DNA of 64,000 bases, from assembly GCA_049840735.1 (NCBI GenBank), contig JASGJN010000022.1:480001-544000 (forward strand), written 5' to 3'. A program made the position numbers and the translations under genes. The stretch's first letter is position 1, and each line of letters opens with the position of its first letter. The stretch comes from Anaeromyxobacter sp. (GTDB lineage: Bacteria > Myxococcota > Myxococcia > Myxococcales > Anaeromyxobacteraceae). Under the pieces are notes generated by a model. That model was given only the letters and a program-made list of their open reading frames with translations. It had not been told where the DNA came from and ran no database searches. Shown here piece by piece: positions 1,523 to 10,981 of the stretch.

Positions 1523-3099
1523 GTGAACCTGCTCACCATCGTCACCTTCGTCCCCCTGGCCGGCGCCCTGGCGCTGCTGATGCTCCCCCGCGACGAGGCG
1601 GGGCAGCACCGGGCCCTGGCCTTCGCGACCACGCTGGTCACCCTGGCGCTCTCGCTCGGGCTCTGGGCGGGCTTCACGCCCTCCGGCCCCGAGTTCCAGT
1701 TCGAGCAGCAGTCCGCCTGGATCCCCTCGCTGGGCATCAGCTACCACGTGGGCATCGACGGCGTGGCGCTGCTGCTCATCATGCTCACCACCGTGCTGGG
1801 GCCGGTGGTGGTGCTCTCGGCGTGGACCGCCATCCAGGACCGCGTGAAGGAGTTCCTGATCGCGCTGCTGGTCCTCGAGACGGCGATGATCGGCACCTTC
1901 GCCGCGCTCGACCTGGTGCTCTTCTACGTGTTCTGGGAGGCCATGCTGATCCCGATGTACCTGCTGATCGGGGTCTGGGGCTCGCAGAACCGGCTCTACG
2001 CGACGGTGAAGTTCTTCATCTACACCTTCGCGGCCAGCCTGCTGATGCTGGCGGCCATCCTCTACGTCTACTTCCACTCCGGCTCGCCGCAGACCTTCGA
2101 CTACCTGGCGGTGCGCGACCACCTGGACGTCACGCCGGCCGCGGCCGGCTGGCTCTTCCTGGCCTTCGGCGTGGCCTTCGCGGTCAAGGTGCCGATGTTC
2201 CCGCTGCACACCTGGCTGCCGGACGCGCACACCGAGGCGCCCACCGCCGGCTCGGTGATCCTGGCCGGCGTGCTCCTCAAGATGGGCACGTTCGGCTTCT
2301 TCCGCTACGCGATGCCGCTCTTCCCGGGCGCCGCGCTCGAGTACCGGCACGTCATCGCGGTGCTGGCGGTGATCGGCATCCTCTACGGCGCGCTCATGTC
2401 CTTCGTGCAGACCGACATGAAGCGGCTGGTGGCCTACTCCTCGGTCTCGCACCTCGGCTTCGTCATGCTGGGGCTGGCGGCGCTCTCCAGCGAGGCGTTG
2501 ACCGGGTCGGTCTACCAGATGCTCAACCACGGCGTCTCCACCGGCGCCCTGTTCCTCATCGTGGGGCTGCTCTACGAGCGGCGGCACACCCGCGAATCGC
2601 CCAGTACGGCGGCCTGGCCAAGCGCGTGCCGCTCATCGCGGCGGCCTTCATCCTGGTCACGCTCTCCTCCATCGGCCTGCCCGGCACCAACGGCTTCATC
2701 GGCGAGTTCCTGATCCTCTCCGGCACCTTCCTCTCGCGGCTGGGCAGCCCTGCCGCGCCGGTGCTGGCCACCCTGGCCGCGGTGGGCGTGATCCTGGGCG
2801 CGGTCTACATGCTCAAGCTGGTGGAGCGGGTCTTCCTCGGCCCCCTCCGCAACCCGGAGAACGCCGGGCTGCGCAATCTCTCGGTGCGCGAGGGGTTCGT
2901 CCTGGCGCCCATGATCGCGCTCATCCTGGTGATGGGGCTGGTGCCCCAGCCGTTCCTGGAGCGGGCCCGGCCGTCTGTGGACCAGCTGATGGCCCGCTTC
3001 CAGAAGGCGGGCAGGGCGGACCAGGTCGGCACGGTGCCCACCGCGCGCCCGGCGCCCTCCGCGCCCAGCGCCGCCCTCCCGCAGGTGGAGATCCGCTGA
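1523..3099 (+). CDS. nuoM: NADH-quinone oxidoreductase subunit M (one frameshift at ~2595)
   Basis: [36 protein letters not shown] and [13 protein letters not shown]; after YERRHTR the protein continues in another frame as IAQYGGL...[17 protein letters not shown] to the stop at 3099. Confidence 0.95.
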
Positions 3100-3100
3100 C

Positions 3101-4648
3101 ATGGACAAGTTCCCCGTCACCTCGTTCCTGGCGCTGCTGCCGGTCGCCATCCTCACGGCCGGCGCCCTGGTGCTGCTCATCAGCGAGGTGTTCCTGGTCT
3201 CCGGCAAGCGCGGGTACCAGGCGGTCCTGACCGTGGCCTTCTCGGCCGCCGCCGCCGTGGCCGCCATCGTGCTCCCGGCCAGCGGCCCCATCTTCGACGG
3301 CCAGGCCCGGGCCGACGCCTTCTCCGCCTTCGTGACCGTGATCGTCTGCGCCGGGCTGGGGCTGTCGGCGCTGGTCGGCGCCGGGTGGCTGGAGGCGCGC
3401 AACGCCGAGCGCGGCGAGTTCTACGCGCTCTCCGCCTTCGGCGCCGCCGGCATGGTGCTGCTGGGCATGGCCACCGACCTGCTGGTGGCCTTCATCTCCA
3501 TCGAGGTGATGAGCCTCTCCACCTACGCGCTGGCCGCCTACCTGCGCCGCGGCCGCCGCCCGTCGGAGGCCGCCTTCAAGTACCTGGTGCTGGGCGCGCT
3601 CTCCTCGGCCCTGCTCCTCTACGGCTCGGCGCTGCTCTACGGCGCCTGCGGCTCCACCCTCTTCTCCGACCTGCCCAAGGGGCACGGCAGCTCCATCTAC
3701 CTGGCCGGCCTGGCCCTGGTGGCGGCCGGGGTGGGGTTCAAGATCGCCGCCGTCCCGTTCCACGCCTGGACGCCCGACGTGTACGAGGGCGCCCCCACGC
3801 CGGTCACCGCCTTCATGGCCGCGGGCGTGAAGACGGCCGCCTTCGCGCTGATCCTGCGGGTGTTCCTGGCGGCGGAGACCGGCCCGATGGCCAGGCTGGC
3901 CGTCTTCGGCCCCATGGTCCTCTCGCCGCTGGCCGCGCTGACCATGATCTTCGGCAACCTGCTGGCGGTCCCGCAGCGGAGCGTGAAGCGGATGCTGGCC
4001 TACTCCTCCATCGCCCACGCCGGCTACCTGCTGGTGGGGGTGGTGGCCGCCGAGCAGCCTGGCGCCCGGGACCTGGCGGTGGGCGGCATCCTCTTCTACC
4101 TGGCGGTCTACGCCGCCTCGGCCATCGGCGCGTTCGCCGTGGTGGGGGCGCTGGAGCGGCGGGCCCGGCTCGACGCCGAGCCGCCCGAGGCGTGGGACCT
4201 GTCCCGCTTCGCCGGCCTCGCCCGCCGGCGGCCGGTCCTGGCCTTCGCCATGGCGGTCTTCCTGCTCTCCCTGGCCGGCATCCCGCCCACCGCGGGCTTC
4301 TTCGCCAAGCTGTACGTGTTCAAGGCGGCCATCGGCGCCGGGATGTACCCCCTGGCCATCCTCGGCCTCCTGACCAGCGCGCTGGGCGCGTACTACTACC
4401 TGCGCGTCGTGATCTACATGTACATGTTCCAGCCCGAGGGCAGCGCGGAGGAGTCGCTCGACGCGCCCTCGCTGACGGTGGCGCTGGCGGGCGCCGTGGC
4501 CGTGGTGGTGGTGCTGGGCTTCGTCGCCGAGCCGCTGGTCACGTGGGCGCAGGCCAGCGCGGCCAGCGCCTTCAACACGCCTGGCCCGGCGCTCTCGCAG
4601 GTGCCGGCCCCGCCGCCGCTCCTGCCGTCCGCCCAGGTGGTGCGGTAG
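3101..4648 (+). CDS. nuoN: NADH-quinone oxidoreductase subunit N
   Basis: [63 protein letters not shown]. Confidence 0.97.
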
Positions 4649-4819: not shown

Positions 4820-5152
4820 TCAGTGCGTGCGCCCGGCCAGCTCGGTCGCGCCGAACGGCTTGGGCAAGAGCTCGGCCAGCGGGTGGCGCCGGCCCACGCC
4901 GGCCAGCAGCTCGGGGTACGGGCCGGTCAGGACCGTGCGCAGCCCGCTGCGCAGCGCGGCCTCCACCAGCAGCTCCGCGCCGGCCAGGTGCGCGTCGATC
5001 ACGCAGCAGCCCACGTTGCCCAGCGCCAGCTGGGCGATGGCCTCCTCCGCCGAGGAGGCGCAGGTGGTGGGGTGCCCGTCGAGGCGGAGGCCGATGGCCG
5101 TGGCCTCGCGAAAGGCCCGATCGCCATCCGCGATCAGGTAGGACGTCGGCAT
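4820..5152 (-). CDS. Stand-alone, atypical response-regulator receiver domain protein
   Basis: MPTSYLIADGDRAFREA...VIDAHL...LPKPF receiver-like pattern; ATG at 5152 chosen because the longer ORF start overlaps the upstream RNA and promoter. Confidence 0.7.
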   Translation of the reverse strand: MPTSYLIADGDRAFREATAIGLRLDGHPTTCASSAEEAIAQLALGNVGCCVIDAHLAGAELLVEAALRSGLRTVLTGPYPELLAGVGRRHPLAELLPKPFGATELAGRTH

Positions 5153-5166
5153 TGCGCCGCCCGGGC

Positions 5167-5241
5167 AAAAAAAAAGAACTGCAAAGCGCAGCTGAAGTGG
5201 CGGGGGGGGACCTACCTCAACGGGCTGCTTTGCAGTTCTGT
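5167..5241 (-). ncRNA. Candidate sigma54-dependent small RNA, single long hairpin with C8 apical loop and U9 tail (Pxr-like)
   Basis: 13-bp outer stem agaactgcaaagc/gctttgcagttct, inner stems with G-U pairs on the minus strand, 8-C loop, 9-T tail; starts about 12 nt after a sigma54 -12 element. Confidence 0.75.
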
Positions 5242-5251
5242 CCGGATACAG

Positions 5252-5267
5252 AGCAAGCAGGGTGCCA
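5252..5267 (-). promoter_or_regulatory. sigma54 (-24/-12) promoter
   Basis: Minus strand TGGCAC-CCTGC-TTGCT matches TGGCAC-N5-TTGCW with exact spacing. Confidence 0.85.
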
Positions 5268-5389
5268 GCCGGGTTCAATCGCCCTGATGCGGGCGCAGCC
5301 TCGAGTGATCACGCGGGGTTGACCGTGGGATCGGGCGGTGCCGGGCACCGCGCGGCCCGCCGCCGGGGCCGGCCCAGTTCACTCCTGCG

Positions 5390-5423
5390 TTTCAGATCTG
5401 AAAGGCGCATTTCACAACTGCAA
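5390..5423. promoter_or_regulatory. Tandem palindromic enhancer sites for a sigma54 activator
   Basis: TTTCA-gatc-TGAAA (5390-5403) and TTTCA-caac-TGCAA (5410-5423), 20 bp apart, ~150-180 bp upstream of the predicted start site. Confidence 0.65.
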
Positions 5424-5444: not shown

Positions 5445-6905
<1,461 letters not shown>

Positions 6906-6940: not shown

Positions 6941-9900
6941 TCAACTGCGCTCCGCGTCCTCGGTCGGCTCCAGCGGGAAGCGCAGGGTCATGACGGTGCC
7001 CGCGCCGGGCCGGGTCCGGACCGAGATCTCGCCGCCGTGGCCCTCCATGATGCGCTTCACCACCGCCAGGCCCAGGCCGGTGCCGCTGGCCTTGGTGGTG
7101 AAGAAGGGCTCGAAGATCCTTCTCCGGACCTCCTCCGGGATGCCGGCGCCGGTGTCCTCCAGCTCCACCGCGGCCCAGGGGCCCTCGCGCCGCAGGCGCA
7201 CGGTGAGGACGCCACCGCGCGGCATGGACTGGGCGGCGTTGACCGCCACGTTGACCACCGCCTGGCGCACCAGCCGCTCGTCCAGCGGCACCGGCGGCAG
7301 CTCCTCCTCCACCTCGCGCCGCACCTCCACGCCGCCGGCGTGCTGGACCAGCGCCGCCGCCACGGCGTCGTCCACCACCCGCTCCAGCTTCTCCGGGTGG
7401 AGGACCGGGGTGGACGGCCGGGCGAAGTCGAGCAGGTCGCCCACGATCCGGTTGAGCCGGTCGGCCTCCTCGCCCACGATGTCGAGCAGGAGCCGGGCGT
7501 CGCCCTCCGGCCGGAGCAGGCGGCGCAGCGAGCCGAGCGAGTTGAAGATCACGCCCAGCGGGTTGCGCACCTCGTGGGCCACCACCGCCGAGAGCTCGCC
7601 CAGGGCCGCCAGCCGCTCCTGCTGGATGAGCTGGCGCTGCGCCTGGGCCAGCTCGGCGTAGCTCTGGCGCAGGTCGTCGTAGAGGCGGGCGTTCTCCACC
7701 GCCACCGCCAGCTGGTTGGCCACCGCGGCGGCCCGCTCCACCTCGGCGCGCTGGAAGGCGCGCGGCCCGCGGCTCTCCACGATCATGGTGGAGCCGATGA
7801 GCCGGTCGCGGACCATCAGCGGCAGCACCAGGTAGGCGCGCCCGCCCACCTTCTCGCGCTGCTCCGGGAGGATGCGCGGGTCGCTGAGCACGTCCTCCAC
7901 CAGGATGGGCTCGCGCCGCTCCATGGCCAGCGCGCCCAGCGTGCCGGGCCGGTCCACCGGCGGCCGCGTGCCGATCAGCTCGCGCGGCCCGCCCCACACC
8001 GCGCGCACTTGCAGTCCCTTCCCGCCGTCCACCGCCAGCGCCAGCAGGGCGGTGGGGGCCTCGACGATGCGGGCCAGGTTGCGCACGCCCGCCTCCAGCA
8101 CCTGCTCGATGTCGAGCGTGGCCACCAGGGCGCGCCCCACCTCGTGCAGCAGCGACAGCTCCTCGGCGCGGCGGCGCGTCTCCTGGTAGAGGCGCGCGTT
8201 GTCCACCGCCACCGCCAGCTGGCTGGCGATGGCCACCGCCCGCGAGAGCTCGCCCGGTGAGTAGCCGCGCCCCGGGGCGGCCGAGACCAGCGCCACGCCC
8301 ACCGGGTGATCGCGCACGTGGAGGGGCACCGCCAGCGCCGGGCCGCCCGAGTCCGGGACCTGGCCGGTGACCGGGGCGCGCGCGTCCAGCGCCTCGCGCA
8401 GCACCGAGCGATCCGAGAGCGGCAGCGACGGCGGGCCCAGCGGCGGGCCGCGGTGGGCGGCGCGGCGCAGCTCCTGGCGGCGCGGGTCGTCGAGCAGGAT
8501 GGTGCAGCCGCCCGCGCCCAGGGTCTGCTTGAGGTGCTCGGCGCCGGCCAGCAGCACCTCGTCGAGGTCCAGCGAGGAGGAGACCACGCGGGCCACGTCG
8601 ATGACCGTGGCCAGCTCGGCCAGGCGCCCGCGGGCCTCGCTGTAGAGCCGGGCGTTCTCGATGCCCACCGCCAGCTCGCCGGCCAGCGCCGTGGCCAGGG
8701 CCCGCTCCTCCGGGGCGAAGGCGCGCCCGGGGGCGCCGGCCACCAGCAGCACGCCCACGGTGGCGGCGCGGGCCACCAGCGGCACGGCCAGCGCCGACAT
8801 GGGCGGCACGCCGGAGCGGCCGTAGAGGGCGCTGCGGGGATCGCGGGTCAGGTCGTCGGAGCCCACCGGCTCGCCGGTGCGGATGGCCTCCTCCACCAGG
8901 CCGTCGCGGGCCAGCGGGCGCCGGGCGCGGTCCGGCTCGAGGCGCGCGCCCACCGCCGCGGCGGTGTGCAGGGTCTGGCCGTCCTCGTCCACCAGCAGGA
9001 GCGCCGCCGAGGCGCAGCCCAGGGCGCTGGCGGCGGCGCGGCAGCCGTCGTCGAGCAGCGCGCGCACGTCGCCCGGGGCGTTGGCGAAGATGCGCTGGGT
9101 GATGCGGTGGACCGCCTCCAGGTCGGAGAGGCGGCGGCGCACGTCGGCGAAGAGCCGCGCGTTCTCCACCGCCACGCCCAGCTGGACGCCCAGCGCGGCC
9201 AGCAGCCGGACCTCGCCCTCGCCGACGGCGCGGCGATCGCGGCGGGCCACCACCAGCGCGCCCACCGCCGCCCGGCCCTTGGCCAGCAGCGGCACCGCCA
9301 CGCTGGCGCGCAGCCCCTCGCGCGCCACCACCTCGGTGGTGGTGGCGTCCAGCGCCGGGTCCCCCTCCACGGCCAGCACCGGCGCCAGCCGCTGCACCGC
9401 CTGCCCGGCCAGCCCGTCGCCCGGGGCCACCCGCTCCAGCCGGCGCAGCGTGTTCACGTCCAGGCCGGCCGCGGCCACCAGCTTGAGCGCGTCGCCCTCG
9501 CGCACGAAGGCGGCGCCGGCCTGCGCCTCCAGCGTGGCGCAGACCCGGCGCAGCGCGCTGTCGAGCAGCAGCACCGGGTCGAGCTGCGCGCTGGCCATGG
9601 AGACGTCGTTGAGCAGCGTCAGCTCGGCCACGCGCCGGCGCAGGTCGGTCAGCAGCGTGTTGGACTCGATGGCGCTGGCGAAGTGGCCGGCCGCGGCGCC
9701 CAGCAGGTCGAGCCGGGCCCGCGCCTCCTCCGCCGGCGCGGCGAAGGCCGCCGCCATCACGCCCACGGTGCGGGAGCGGGCCACCAGCGGCACCCAGGCC
9801 GTGGCCGGCCAGTCCCCCAGCGGCGCCTCCCCGGCGGCCGGCTCCCCGGCGCTGACGACGCGCGCCAGCCGCTCCTCCGCCACCAGCGCCAGCTCCGAGC

Positions 9901-10981
9901 CGGCCGGCACCTCGGGCGGCGGGACCGCGGGGTCGGCCGGGTGCGCCGGGTGGCGCCGGAGCAGCCGGCCGCTGGCCTCGTCCAGCGCGTAGACCGCCAG
10001 CGCGGCGGCGCCGGAGGCGCGGCGCAGCTCCTCCTCGGCCCGCTGGAAGAAGGCCTCCAGGTCGCTCACCTCGCCCAGCAGCTCGGCGATGCGGTTGAGG
10101 GCGGCCAGGTCGGCGTTGTGGCGGGAGAGCTCGGCGATGGTCCGGGCCGCGTCCAGCGCCGCCGCCACCTGCGCGCCGAAGAGCCGGCCGGCCGGGACGT
10201 CCTCGGCGCGCAGCCAGTCGCCGATCAGCACCAGGTAGTGGCGCACGCCGGTCCGCTCGTCGAGCCGGATGGCCACCGCGCGGGAGAGGCCGTGCGAGGC
10301 GGCCAGCGAGCGGGTGACCTCGGCGTGGATGAGCGGCACGAAGGCGGCCGCCTCGGACGCCCAGTCGTCGGAGAAGGCCACGCCCTCGTCCCAGGCGGTG
10401 CGGGCGAAGCCGGTCCAGTGGCCGGTGAACCCCTCCACGTCCTGGCCCAGCTGGCCGCGGAAGGCCTCCTCCAGCACGGTGGGCAGGCCGGTCCAGACCA
10501 CCCGCACGCCCTCCGGCATGGCCCGCAGCAGCATGGGGGTGATGCCGAGCGGCGGCAGCGCCTCGCGCAGGTGCGCGAAGAGGTCGGCCTCGCTCCGCTC
10601 GCCCTGGATGGCCGCGCCCAGCGCCGCCAGCGCCTCCAGCCGCGGACGCCGCGCCGCCTGGGCGGTGACGTCGCGCAGCCCCACCACCACGTCGCCGCCC
10701 TCCCGCTCCACGCGGAGCTCGACGGTGACGCGGGCGCCGTCCGGCCGGAGCAGCACCGCCTCGTACTCGCTCGGCACCGGCTCGCCGCGCAGCCGCCGCT
10801 CGTGGCGCTCGGCCACGCGCCCGCGGTCCTCCGGCGCGAACAGGTCGGCGAAGGGGAGCCCCAGCAGCGCCGGCAGCGGCCGGCCGGCCAGCGCGGCCGC
10901 GCCCTCGCTGGCCATGGCGATGCGCCGCTCGCGCAGCATGACCGTGCCGGTCTGGTGGCGCTCGCGGGCCGGGGCGGTCAC
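6941..10981 (-). CDS. Cytoplasmic sensor histidine kinase with PAS and multiple GAF domains
   Basis: N-terminal PAS-like segment, repeated GAF ends ([16 protein letters not shown]), H-box [33 protein letters not shown]. Confidence 0.95.

Follow-up and report, generated by a model that had tools for sequence, protein, structure and literature searches.

A predicted single-hairpin homologue of the small RNA Pxr between a PxrR-type activator and nuoN in Anaeromyxobacter

What occupies the gap between an NtrC-type activator gene and nuoN in the window, the 64,000-nucleotide stretch of Anaeromyxobacter DNA analyzed here, and how is it related to Pxr? In Myxococcus, the small RNA (sRNA) Pxr acts as a gate on the development of fruiting bodies; which of its forms is active and which targets it contacts directly are questions still under study (PMC11928866 and PMC10217877, both in part; here and below, "in part" marks sources of which a part was available). 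It is the one well-studied sRNA gate of myxobacterial multicellular development. Anaeromyxobacter, unlike Myxococcus, forms no fruiting bodies (PMC8538405, in part), and the same is presumed for the window's own, apparently uncultured, organism. A natural minimal version of Pxr in a culturable, non-fruiting genus separates the core of this RNA from its accessories. A first-pass annotation had proposed that the gap holds a candidate divergent Pxr homologue, possibly a minimal or ancestral one. Our comparisons predict a conserved regulatory RNA gene of about 75 nt in the activator–nuoN gap.

On the minus strand, two tandem palindromes, an exact sigma54 promoter, a transcription start near 5241, a hairpin with a C-rich loop, and nine Ts had been described, and each element was found in its place (Table 1). 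The activator stop codon spans 5447–5445, the start-to-start distance of the palindromes is 20 bp, and the C of the –12 element at 5253 sets the predicted +1 at 5241. The minus-strand hairpin folded with –35.6 kcal/mol (z –5.45), and none of 200 shuffled sequences (0/200) folded equally well. The plus strand yielded –32.4 kcal/mol, and A-U pairs that have become G-U in relatives are consistent with the minus strand, in agreement with the earlier remark on the G-U pairs. No other exact promoter match exists in the window, where 0.06 would be expected, and the 6.67-Mb genome contains 7 in all; the tandem enhancer occurs in this genome a single time. The RNA is single-copy in its own genome, and rpoN is present. 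The terminator scan returned one site at the T-run, with a shorter alternative stem, and a sigma70 scan at the locus found no promoter. A second loop-like motif at G000:C7:49000 was rejected, having neither a promoter nor a matching fold. Contigs of four soil RNA runs (9 runs are listed for L009:1000-2600) were compared with the locus; the RNA bins were covered in X3, X4, and X7, with no cover over much of the spacer, a pattern confounded by conservation and by other organisms.

Table 1. Predicted elements of the cassette and neighboring genes (window positions)
Feature	Positions	Strand	Basis or remark
Predicted small RNA, ~75 nt	5167..5241	-	one 26-bp interrupted hairpin (5239-5175) plus U9; ends predicted
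Hairpin tip homologous to Pxr stem-loop 1 (SL1)	5191..5221	-	aligns to Rfam Pxr positions 8-38
C8 loop, probable pairing seed	5202..5209	-	conservation of C columns
T9 tract; together with the hairpin base a probable intrinsic terminator	5167..5175	-	sequence and terminator scan
Sigma54 (-24/-12) promoter, TGGCAC-N5-TTGC	5253..5267	-	invariant columns; rpoN in genome
Enhancer palindrome 1, TTGCA-N4-TGAAA, probable PxrR site	5410..5423	-	motif shared across loci
Enhancer palindrome 2, TTTCA-N4-TGAAA, probable PxrR site	5390..5403	-	identical 14-mer upstream of pxr in L037
NtrC-type activator, PxrR/Nla19 orthologue (receiver, sigma54 AAA+, HTH)	5445..6905	-	Pfam, reciprocal best hits, tree
Histidine kinase, PxrK counterpart (PAS, five GAF, HisKA, HATPase)	6941..10981	-	Pfam; start codon uncertain
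ORF of 110 aa with one degenerate receiver domain, immediately after the T-run	4820..5152	-	weak PF00072 match
nuoN, convergent, conserved neighbor of pxr loci	3101..4648	+	Pfam PF00361; synteny

The expectation that promoter and hairpin are kept in relatives was borne out. A DNA search of 60 relatives located both in 29 of 36 same-genus genomes at E ≤ 6e-15. Of the seven missing genomes, G009 and G020 have a divergent copy next to the activator (54–55 bits), G030 contains only a weak match without a promoter, and the remaining four (G018, G027, G032, and G035) are 66–90% complete. Mean column identity was 88% in 30 aligned genus copies, the window included. The TGGCA and TTGCT columns were 100% conserved in the 30 loci, with 33–60% in the spacer and flanks; the TGGC and TGC letters of the promoter belonged to the selecting pattern. 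In the loop, seven of eight C columns were at least 90% conserved, and the run length varied between 7 and 10. The enhancer motif was found upstream in 30/30 loci as one or two sites, the end of the activator in 29/30 (within the sequence available), and a U-rich tail directly follows the first hairpin in the 30 copies. Stem covariation across the genus, which the first-pass annotation had proposed to examine, turned out to be thin, at 3 of 22 pairs; the window itself displays a G-C to C-G swap. The same cassette occurs in the Anaeromyxobacter loci L074, L095, L118, and L139, and the cassette records name members of the cultured genus (Anaeromyxobacter sp. PSR-1, A. oryzisoli, A. soli, and A. 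oryzae). In L008 (G012), the activator and the RNA are set apart by more than 1.4 kb of inserted DNA, and the enhancer and promoter remain with the RNA.

The proposed link to the activator Nla19 (PxrR) and to the gene order around it was supported. The regulator lying immediately before Rfam-positive pxr genes, and not MXAN_1078 by name, served as PxrR, and true pxr loci were those from genomes above the Rfam cut-off (G048, G041, and G053). With the window activator as query, G048 and G041 each returned the pxr-adjacent regulator first, at 554 and 544 bits as against 413 and 416 for the runners-up. The reverse searches returned the window activator (477 and 475 bits; next 349 and 351). In a tree of 49 proteins, obtained by a quick method with midpoint rooting and no bootstrap and having an unresolved base, the window activator fell into a clade of 21 pxr-type regulators (SH-aLRT 100), and all 19 of its own paralogues fell outside. 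On this sequence evidence, the window activator is a PxrR orthologue. Its nearest named relative, in Anaeromyxobacter sp. PSR-1, is 80% identical. For the kinases, compared in one direction only, the pxr-adjacent proteins matched the window kinase best in this genome, at 318 and 305 bits as against 145 and 148. The order hsp33–PRTase–selB–kinase–activator precedes the gap in the window, and including the RNA and nuoN it is common to the window and the true pxr loci of G048 and G041. All pxr homologues have been placed between nla19 and an NADH dehydrogenase gene (PMC5568312, in part).

The M. xanthus system, Pxr with PxrK/PxrR (MXAN_1077/1078, Nla19, SpdS/SpdR), resembles the window locus in having a sigma54 promoter behind the orthologous activator, the same enhancer, and a position before nuoN. 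The loci differ in the kinase, which is longer and multi-GAF in the window as compared with the Myxococcaceae protein, and downstream, where M. xanthus has pxrA and the window a small receiver ORF. This ORF matched PF00072 with E 0.008, below the cut-off. Identities of 47–60% were observed among relatives, with the phospho-acceptor Asp and the Lys kept as judged by eye; the protein is possibly a phosphate sink of the kinase.

Compared with the Rfam family itself (RF01812), the claim of a Pxr homologue held through the tip, the activator, the enhancer, and the gene order, and failed on the Rfam model alone. The window RNA scored 15.3 bits over model positions 8–38 (SL1), the gathering cut-off being 80. 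The cut-off was exceeded in 0/36 same-genus genomes and in 3/4 of family f6. A search of the window's whole genome with the Rfam model gave six sub-threshold matches elsewhere and missed the window locus, and the matches in f5, f3, and f1 genomes (E 0.001–0.05) were discarded as unrelated terminators. Aligned without gaps to SL1 of a pxr scoring 134.8 bits, the tip of the window hairpin is identical at 24 of 31 bases and keeps all stem pairs. The enhancer motif also lies upstream of Rfam-positive pxr genes, and the tip lies 40–43 nt from the –12 element in the genus and 36–42 nt in canonical pxr copies. The two RNAs have in common the SL1 tip with its C-run loop and the promoter-to-loop distance and, according to the present analysis, a long 5′ hairpin as well. 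In contrast to Pxr, the window RNA is only about 75 nt long, and its single hairpin runs straight into U9. Neither the annotated SL2 (a short 4-bp hairpin) nor SL3 (a conserved 8-bp stem) is present. The term "minimal" was apt. The loop is closed by U-G (GGU-C8-GCC) in the window and by U-A in Pxr. By these comparisons, the predicted window RNA is a real, conserved single-hairpin Pxr homologue. It falls outside RF01812 in its present definition and probably acts in the manner of Pxr SL1.

A model built only from 30 Anaeromyxobacter copies (R1; 150 candidates scored per genome) was run in the opposite direction. Genome-wide, the true pxr locus was the only match in G048 (E 0.0075, a weak value), covered at full length and starting 12 nt before the Rfam start. 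R1 also recovered the two copies of G038 and the one of G050, and missed pxr in G041 and G058, two of the three Myxococcaceae genomes tried. On selected loci, the expected site was recovered in 32 of 34 myxobacterial loci, 29 of them at E ≤ 0.01, and in none of 21 chance pattern matches (0/21); both sets were chosen by eye, and therefore this was not a blind test. The two exceptions were L161, which was missed, and L058 (G056:C160), which yielded no candidate.

Several sRNAs are driven by sigma54 enhancer-binding proteins, namely Qrr (LuxO), GlmY (GlrR), and NrsZ (NtrC). They resemble the window RNA in being the small RNA output of such a protein, and differ from it in their activators and in giving no sign of common descent. 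An Rfam search of the window RNA at E ≤ 10 gave no match to Qrr, GlmY, or NrsZ. The literature searched, mostly judged from listings and outside Chen 2014, Yu 2010, and Yu 2016 (which may treat Anaeromyxobacter), contained no Pxr-like RNA in Anaeromyxobacter and no description of a long 5′ helix, and the word Anaeromyxobacter does not occur in the available part of PMC5568312. The single-hairpin Pxr homologue is apparently undescribed.

How far does this RNA extend? Of 211 other genomes in the order, 130 matched the promoter-plus-loop pattern: f1 19/44, f6 94/141 (tallies for f6 include the unpublished genome G173), f3 3/5, f4 4/7, f8 6/9, f5 2/2, f9 1/1, f2 1/1, and f7 0/1. Outside the order, the pattern matched in 0/4 genomes of another order in the class and in 2/85 from other classes, and a reversed control pattern matched in 1/301 genomes. 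A looser pattern reached 161/301, its control matching in 10. The misses are partly variants: the pattern matched in 0/9 genomes of genus g22, and the two examined further both contain relocated copies that have a promoter and an enhancer. Related RNAs were found in 8 of the 9 sampled families of the order. The folded matches from f2, f4, f8, and f9 all had a long C-loop hairpin after the promoter, and most had the enhancer. One hairpin with a U-run was seen in f1, f5, f4, and one f2 copy; the hairpin with SL3 in f6; the hairpin with an SL3-like terminator carrying a second C-loop in f3 and in L166, from a Vulgatibacter incomptus MAG; and the hairpin with another terminator in f8 and f9. V. 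incomptus is not known to form fruiting bodies. Matches of a further model, R2, in G063 and G030 were rejected, as promoter and U-run were absent, and R2 found nothing in G122. A scan of the collection gave at least 119 loci, which serve as examples and not as counts. Published work puts the origin of Pxr at the base of Cystobacterineae (the order Myxococcales), with homologues in "almost all" species examined (PMC5684412; PMC8538405, in part), which fits the order-wide range. That origin is not overturned by our results, which fill in lineages and forms missed by the current model. With a scattered distribution of one- and two-hairpin forms and no resolution at the base of the activator tree, the one-hairpin form may or may not be ancestral.

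Copy number and position vary as well. In genus g22 and in f4, f8, and f2, the RNA is found apart from the activator and keeps its enhancer (L180 in G061, L216, L217, L181, L188, and L191–L196); in G061, the activator abuts nuoN directly, without an RNA in between. Tandem self-promoted copies number up to 7 in one f6 genome (G182:C1:1698164-1700182), and are also present in f5 (3) and f3 (2); the loci are L065, L070, L126, L135, L053, and L056. Three such copies have been described in Cystobacter. In G179, a further Pxr paralogue, unlinked to the first, has an enhancer and a promoter of its own (L189:4401-4500).

We consider it probable that the PxrK/PxrR-type pair drives one C-loop RNA of about 75 nt, a Pxr homologue that pairs with mRNAs. 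The phosphorylated activator would bind the tandem palindromes and open the sigma54 promoter, and polymerase would then make an RNA that folds into one long hairpin and ends at the U-run. The stem would protect the RNA and display the C8 loop, and this loop would lower the translation of several mRNAs by trans pairing with their G-rich ribosome-binding regions. The hairpin base and the U-run may replace SL3 in termination and protection. C-rich loops that pair with Shine–Dalgarno (SD) regions are established for other sRNAs (RNAIII and RsaE). Tandem self-promoted copies and copies far from the activator are as in trans-acting RNAs. In M. xanthus, the SL1 loop is essential for Pxr function and not for accumulation, SL3 is needed for accumulation (PMC5684412), and PxrR is required for Pxr synthesis (PMC10217877, in part). 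The sequence shows the elements and their conservation, the fold, the orthology of the activator, and the common enhancer and gene order. We infer transcription, the RNA ends, and activator dependence from sigma54/NtrC biology and from Pxr; loop pairing, repression, and the targets are presumed. A target scan with a crude ORF caller and no background test yielded 51 G-rich start regions in 4869 ORFs, none of them outstanding, and a published Pxr target prediction uses SL3, not the loop (PMC11928866, in part). The genus being non-fruiting, the targets cannot be fruiting as such; our guess is a nutrient-linked switch of growth state. Further points that count against this explanation are the score of 15.3 of 80 bits, the absent SL3, the thin covariation within the genus, the weak genome-wide result of R1 with its two misses, and the small ORF behind the T-run.

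This ORF, overlooked by the first-pass annotation, offers the best-surviving alternative, in which the hairpin is mainly a cis-acting leader or attenuator. The sigma54 transcript would stop at the U-run, and read-through would lead to the small receiver protein, possibly draining kinase phosphate as feedback. The ORF starts 15 nt after the T-run and lies behind the RNA in 28 of 30 genus loci, and this position leaves room for a leader role. Read-through may be normal, because a longer form, Pxr-XL, exists in M. xanthus, where it is trimmed by RNase D (PMC10217877, in part). On the other hand, two of the 30 genus loci, as well as the other families examined, have the RNA and lack the ORF, tandem self-promoted copies exist, and the single stable fold has no obvious antiterminator. 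We hold a mainly cis-acting role to be unlikely; dual use, as an sRNA with some read-through into the ORF, is possible.

The proposed pairing with mRNAs could also be replaced by protein binding, with the C-loop of a genuine Pxr homologue acting as a decoy or scaffold. The loop is kept across families with different gene sets, the tolerance of 7–10 Cs and a copy number of up to 7 fit titration, our scan of 4869 ORFs gave no clear mRNA target, and direct targets were still to be found in PMC11928866 (in part). This option is weakened by the SD pairing of C-rich loops in RNAIII and RsaE. It is also weakened by TRIC-seq, which placed Pxr contacts near the SD sequences of several mRNAs (bioRxiv 2025.09.11.675593, in part), and we rate it a little below the leader. 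An independently evolved sigma54 RNA that merely resembles Pxr would explain the low Rfam score, and sigma54 C-loop RNAs do recur under an unrelated activator in another class (f12, below). However, the orthologous activator, the same position, enhancer, and spacing, and the 24/31 identity with pair-preserving changes argue for common descent, as do the intermediates with a long hairpin and an SL3-like terminator in L166 and f3; independent origin is largely refuted and very improbable. That the hairpin and its U-run, about 200 nt behind the activator stop, merely terminate the kinase–activator operon can practically be dismissed, given the promoter at a fixed distance, the conserved loop sequence and enhancer, the copies far from the operon, and the activator of G061 that abuts nuoN without a hairpin.

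The comparison of the single-hairpin homologue with Pxr also bears on the start and fold of Pxr itself. The promoter-to-tip distances are alike in the genus and in canonical copies, which places the sigma54-predicted start of Pxr about 12 nt ahead of the Rfam start. When folding began at this predicted position, most canonical copies formed one long hairpin plus SL3. In a structure-blind alignment of 40 distinct canonical-type copies (41 before L163, a loose pattern match, was left out), the helix between the leader and the "SL2" bases was paired at 90.2%, and 10 of its 11 pairs showed two-sided changes; the annotated SL2 (4 pairs) was paired at 68.8%. RNAalifold chose the long helix unaided. 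The covariation of this helix was 0.288 vs. at most 0.123 in slid controls; shuffle values overstate the effect, because the copies are related and include tandem paralogues. A cross-family alignment of 54 copies (56 before two near-duplicate L065 copies were left out), with the structure taken from the Anaeromyxobacter fold, was 81.5% paired, with two-sided changes at 20 of 25 pairs and a covariation of 0.378 vs. at most 0.148 in slid controls. Six C columns were invariant in these 54 copies; the selecting pattern required these Cs.

Primers in PMC5684412 show the same leader and 3′ arm in M. xanthus, and two Cystobacter paralogues have already been predicted without SL2 (PMC5568312, in part). 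Four Cappable-seq supplements of PMC8844925 (available in part) hold no rows for pxr or MXAN_1078-1080, and the full M. xanthus table of transcription start sites is deposited as ArrayExpress E-MTAB-11042 (PMC8844925, in part). The SL2 bases pair better with the leader, and SL2 may therefore not be a true feature. These alignments suggest that the published start and fold of Pxr need revision; should the annotated 5′ end be an experimentally mapped one, the long helix is part of a precursor. Relative to a Pxr that begins at the sigma54-predicted start, the window RNA would correspond to the 5′ domain.

A bolder reading is quite possible, though we expect it slightly more readily to fail than to hold. 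The long C-loop hairpin would be the functional core of Pxr order-wide, with a canonical start about 12 nt upstream and no real SL2. Pxr-S, the short and active form, would be the hairpin freed from SL3, made directly and without processing in Anaeromyxobacter, and the 75-nt RNA would block development in M. xanthus. The equation with Pxr-S draws on the action of RNase D on 3′ ends (PMC10217877, in part) and on the detection of Pxr-S by an SL1 probe (PMC5684412). The genome has one gene with a 3′-5′ exonuclease domain (PF01612, the RNase D domain family). If true, the different start and fold would affect RF01812 and the reading of cross-species constructs, all of which carry the M. xanthus upstream region (PMC5568312, in part), and the Myxococcus gatekeeper would be an order-wide, general regulator later wired into fruiting.

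Three further observations were made along the way. In G058, a 2.7-Mb Myxococcaceae genome, a divergent two-hairpin Pxr (L051:5649-5757, 49.7 bits) lies near nuoN, and no PxrR orthologue or enhancer was found in this genome. In 6/17 genomes of f12, a family of another class of the phylum, a sigma54 promoter leads into C-loop hairpins with U-runs, at least one per cassette (L185:7950-8250 in G381, L199, L200, L202, L203, and L184:7667-7767). The cassette is divergent from an NtrC-type gene in five genomes, and the activators fell outside the PxrR clade in the three tested. Their activators belong to a different clade, no PxrR-type enhancer is present, and R2 scores them at about 19 bits; on these grounds we did not accept the f12 arrays as proven orthologues of Pxr, and they are either a deep relative or convergent. 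In the window itself, nuoM is split over two plus-strand frames (1523-2713 and 1822-3099, span 1523-3099), which suggests a frameshift near 2640, probably an assembly error.
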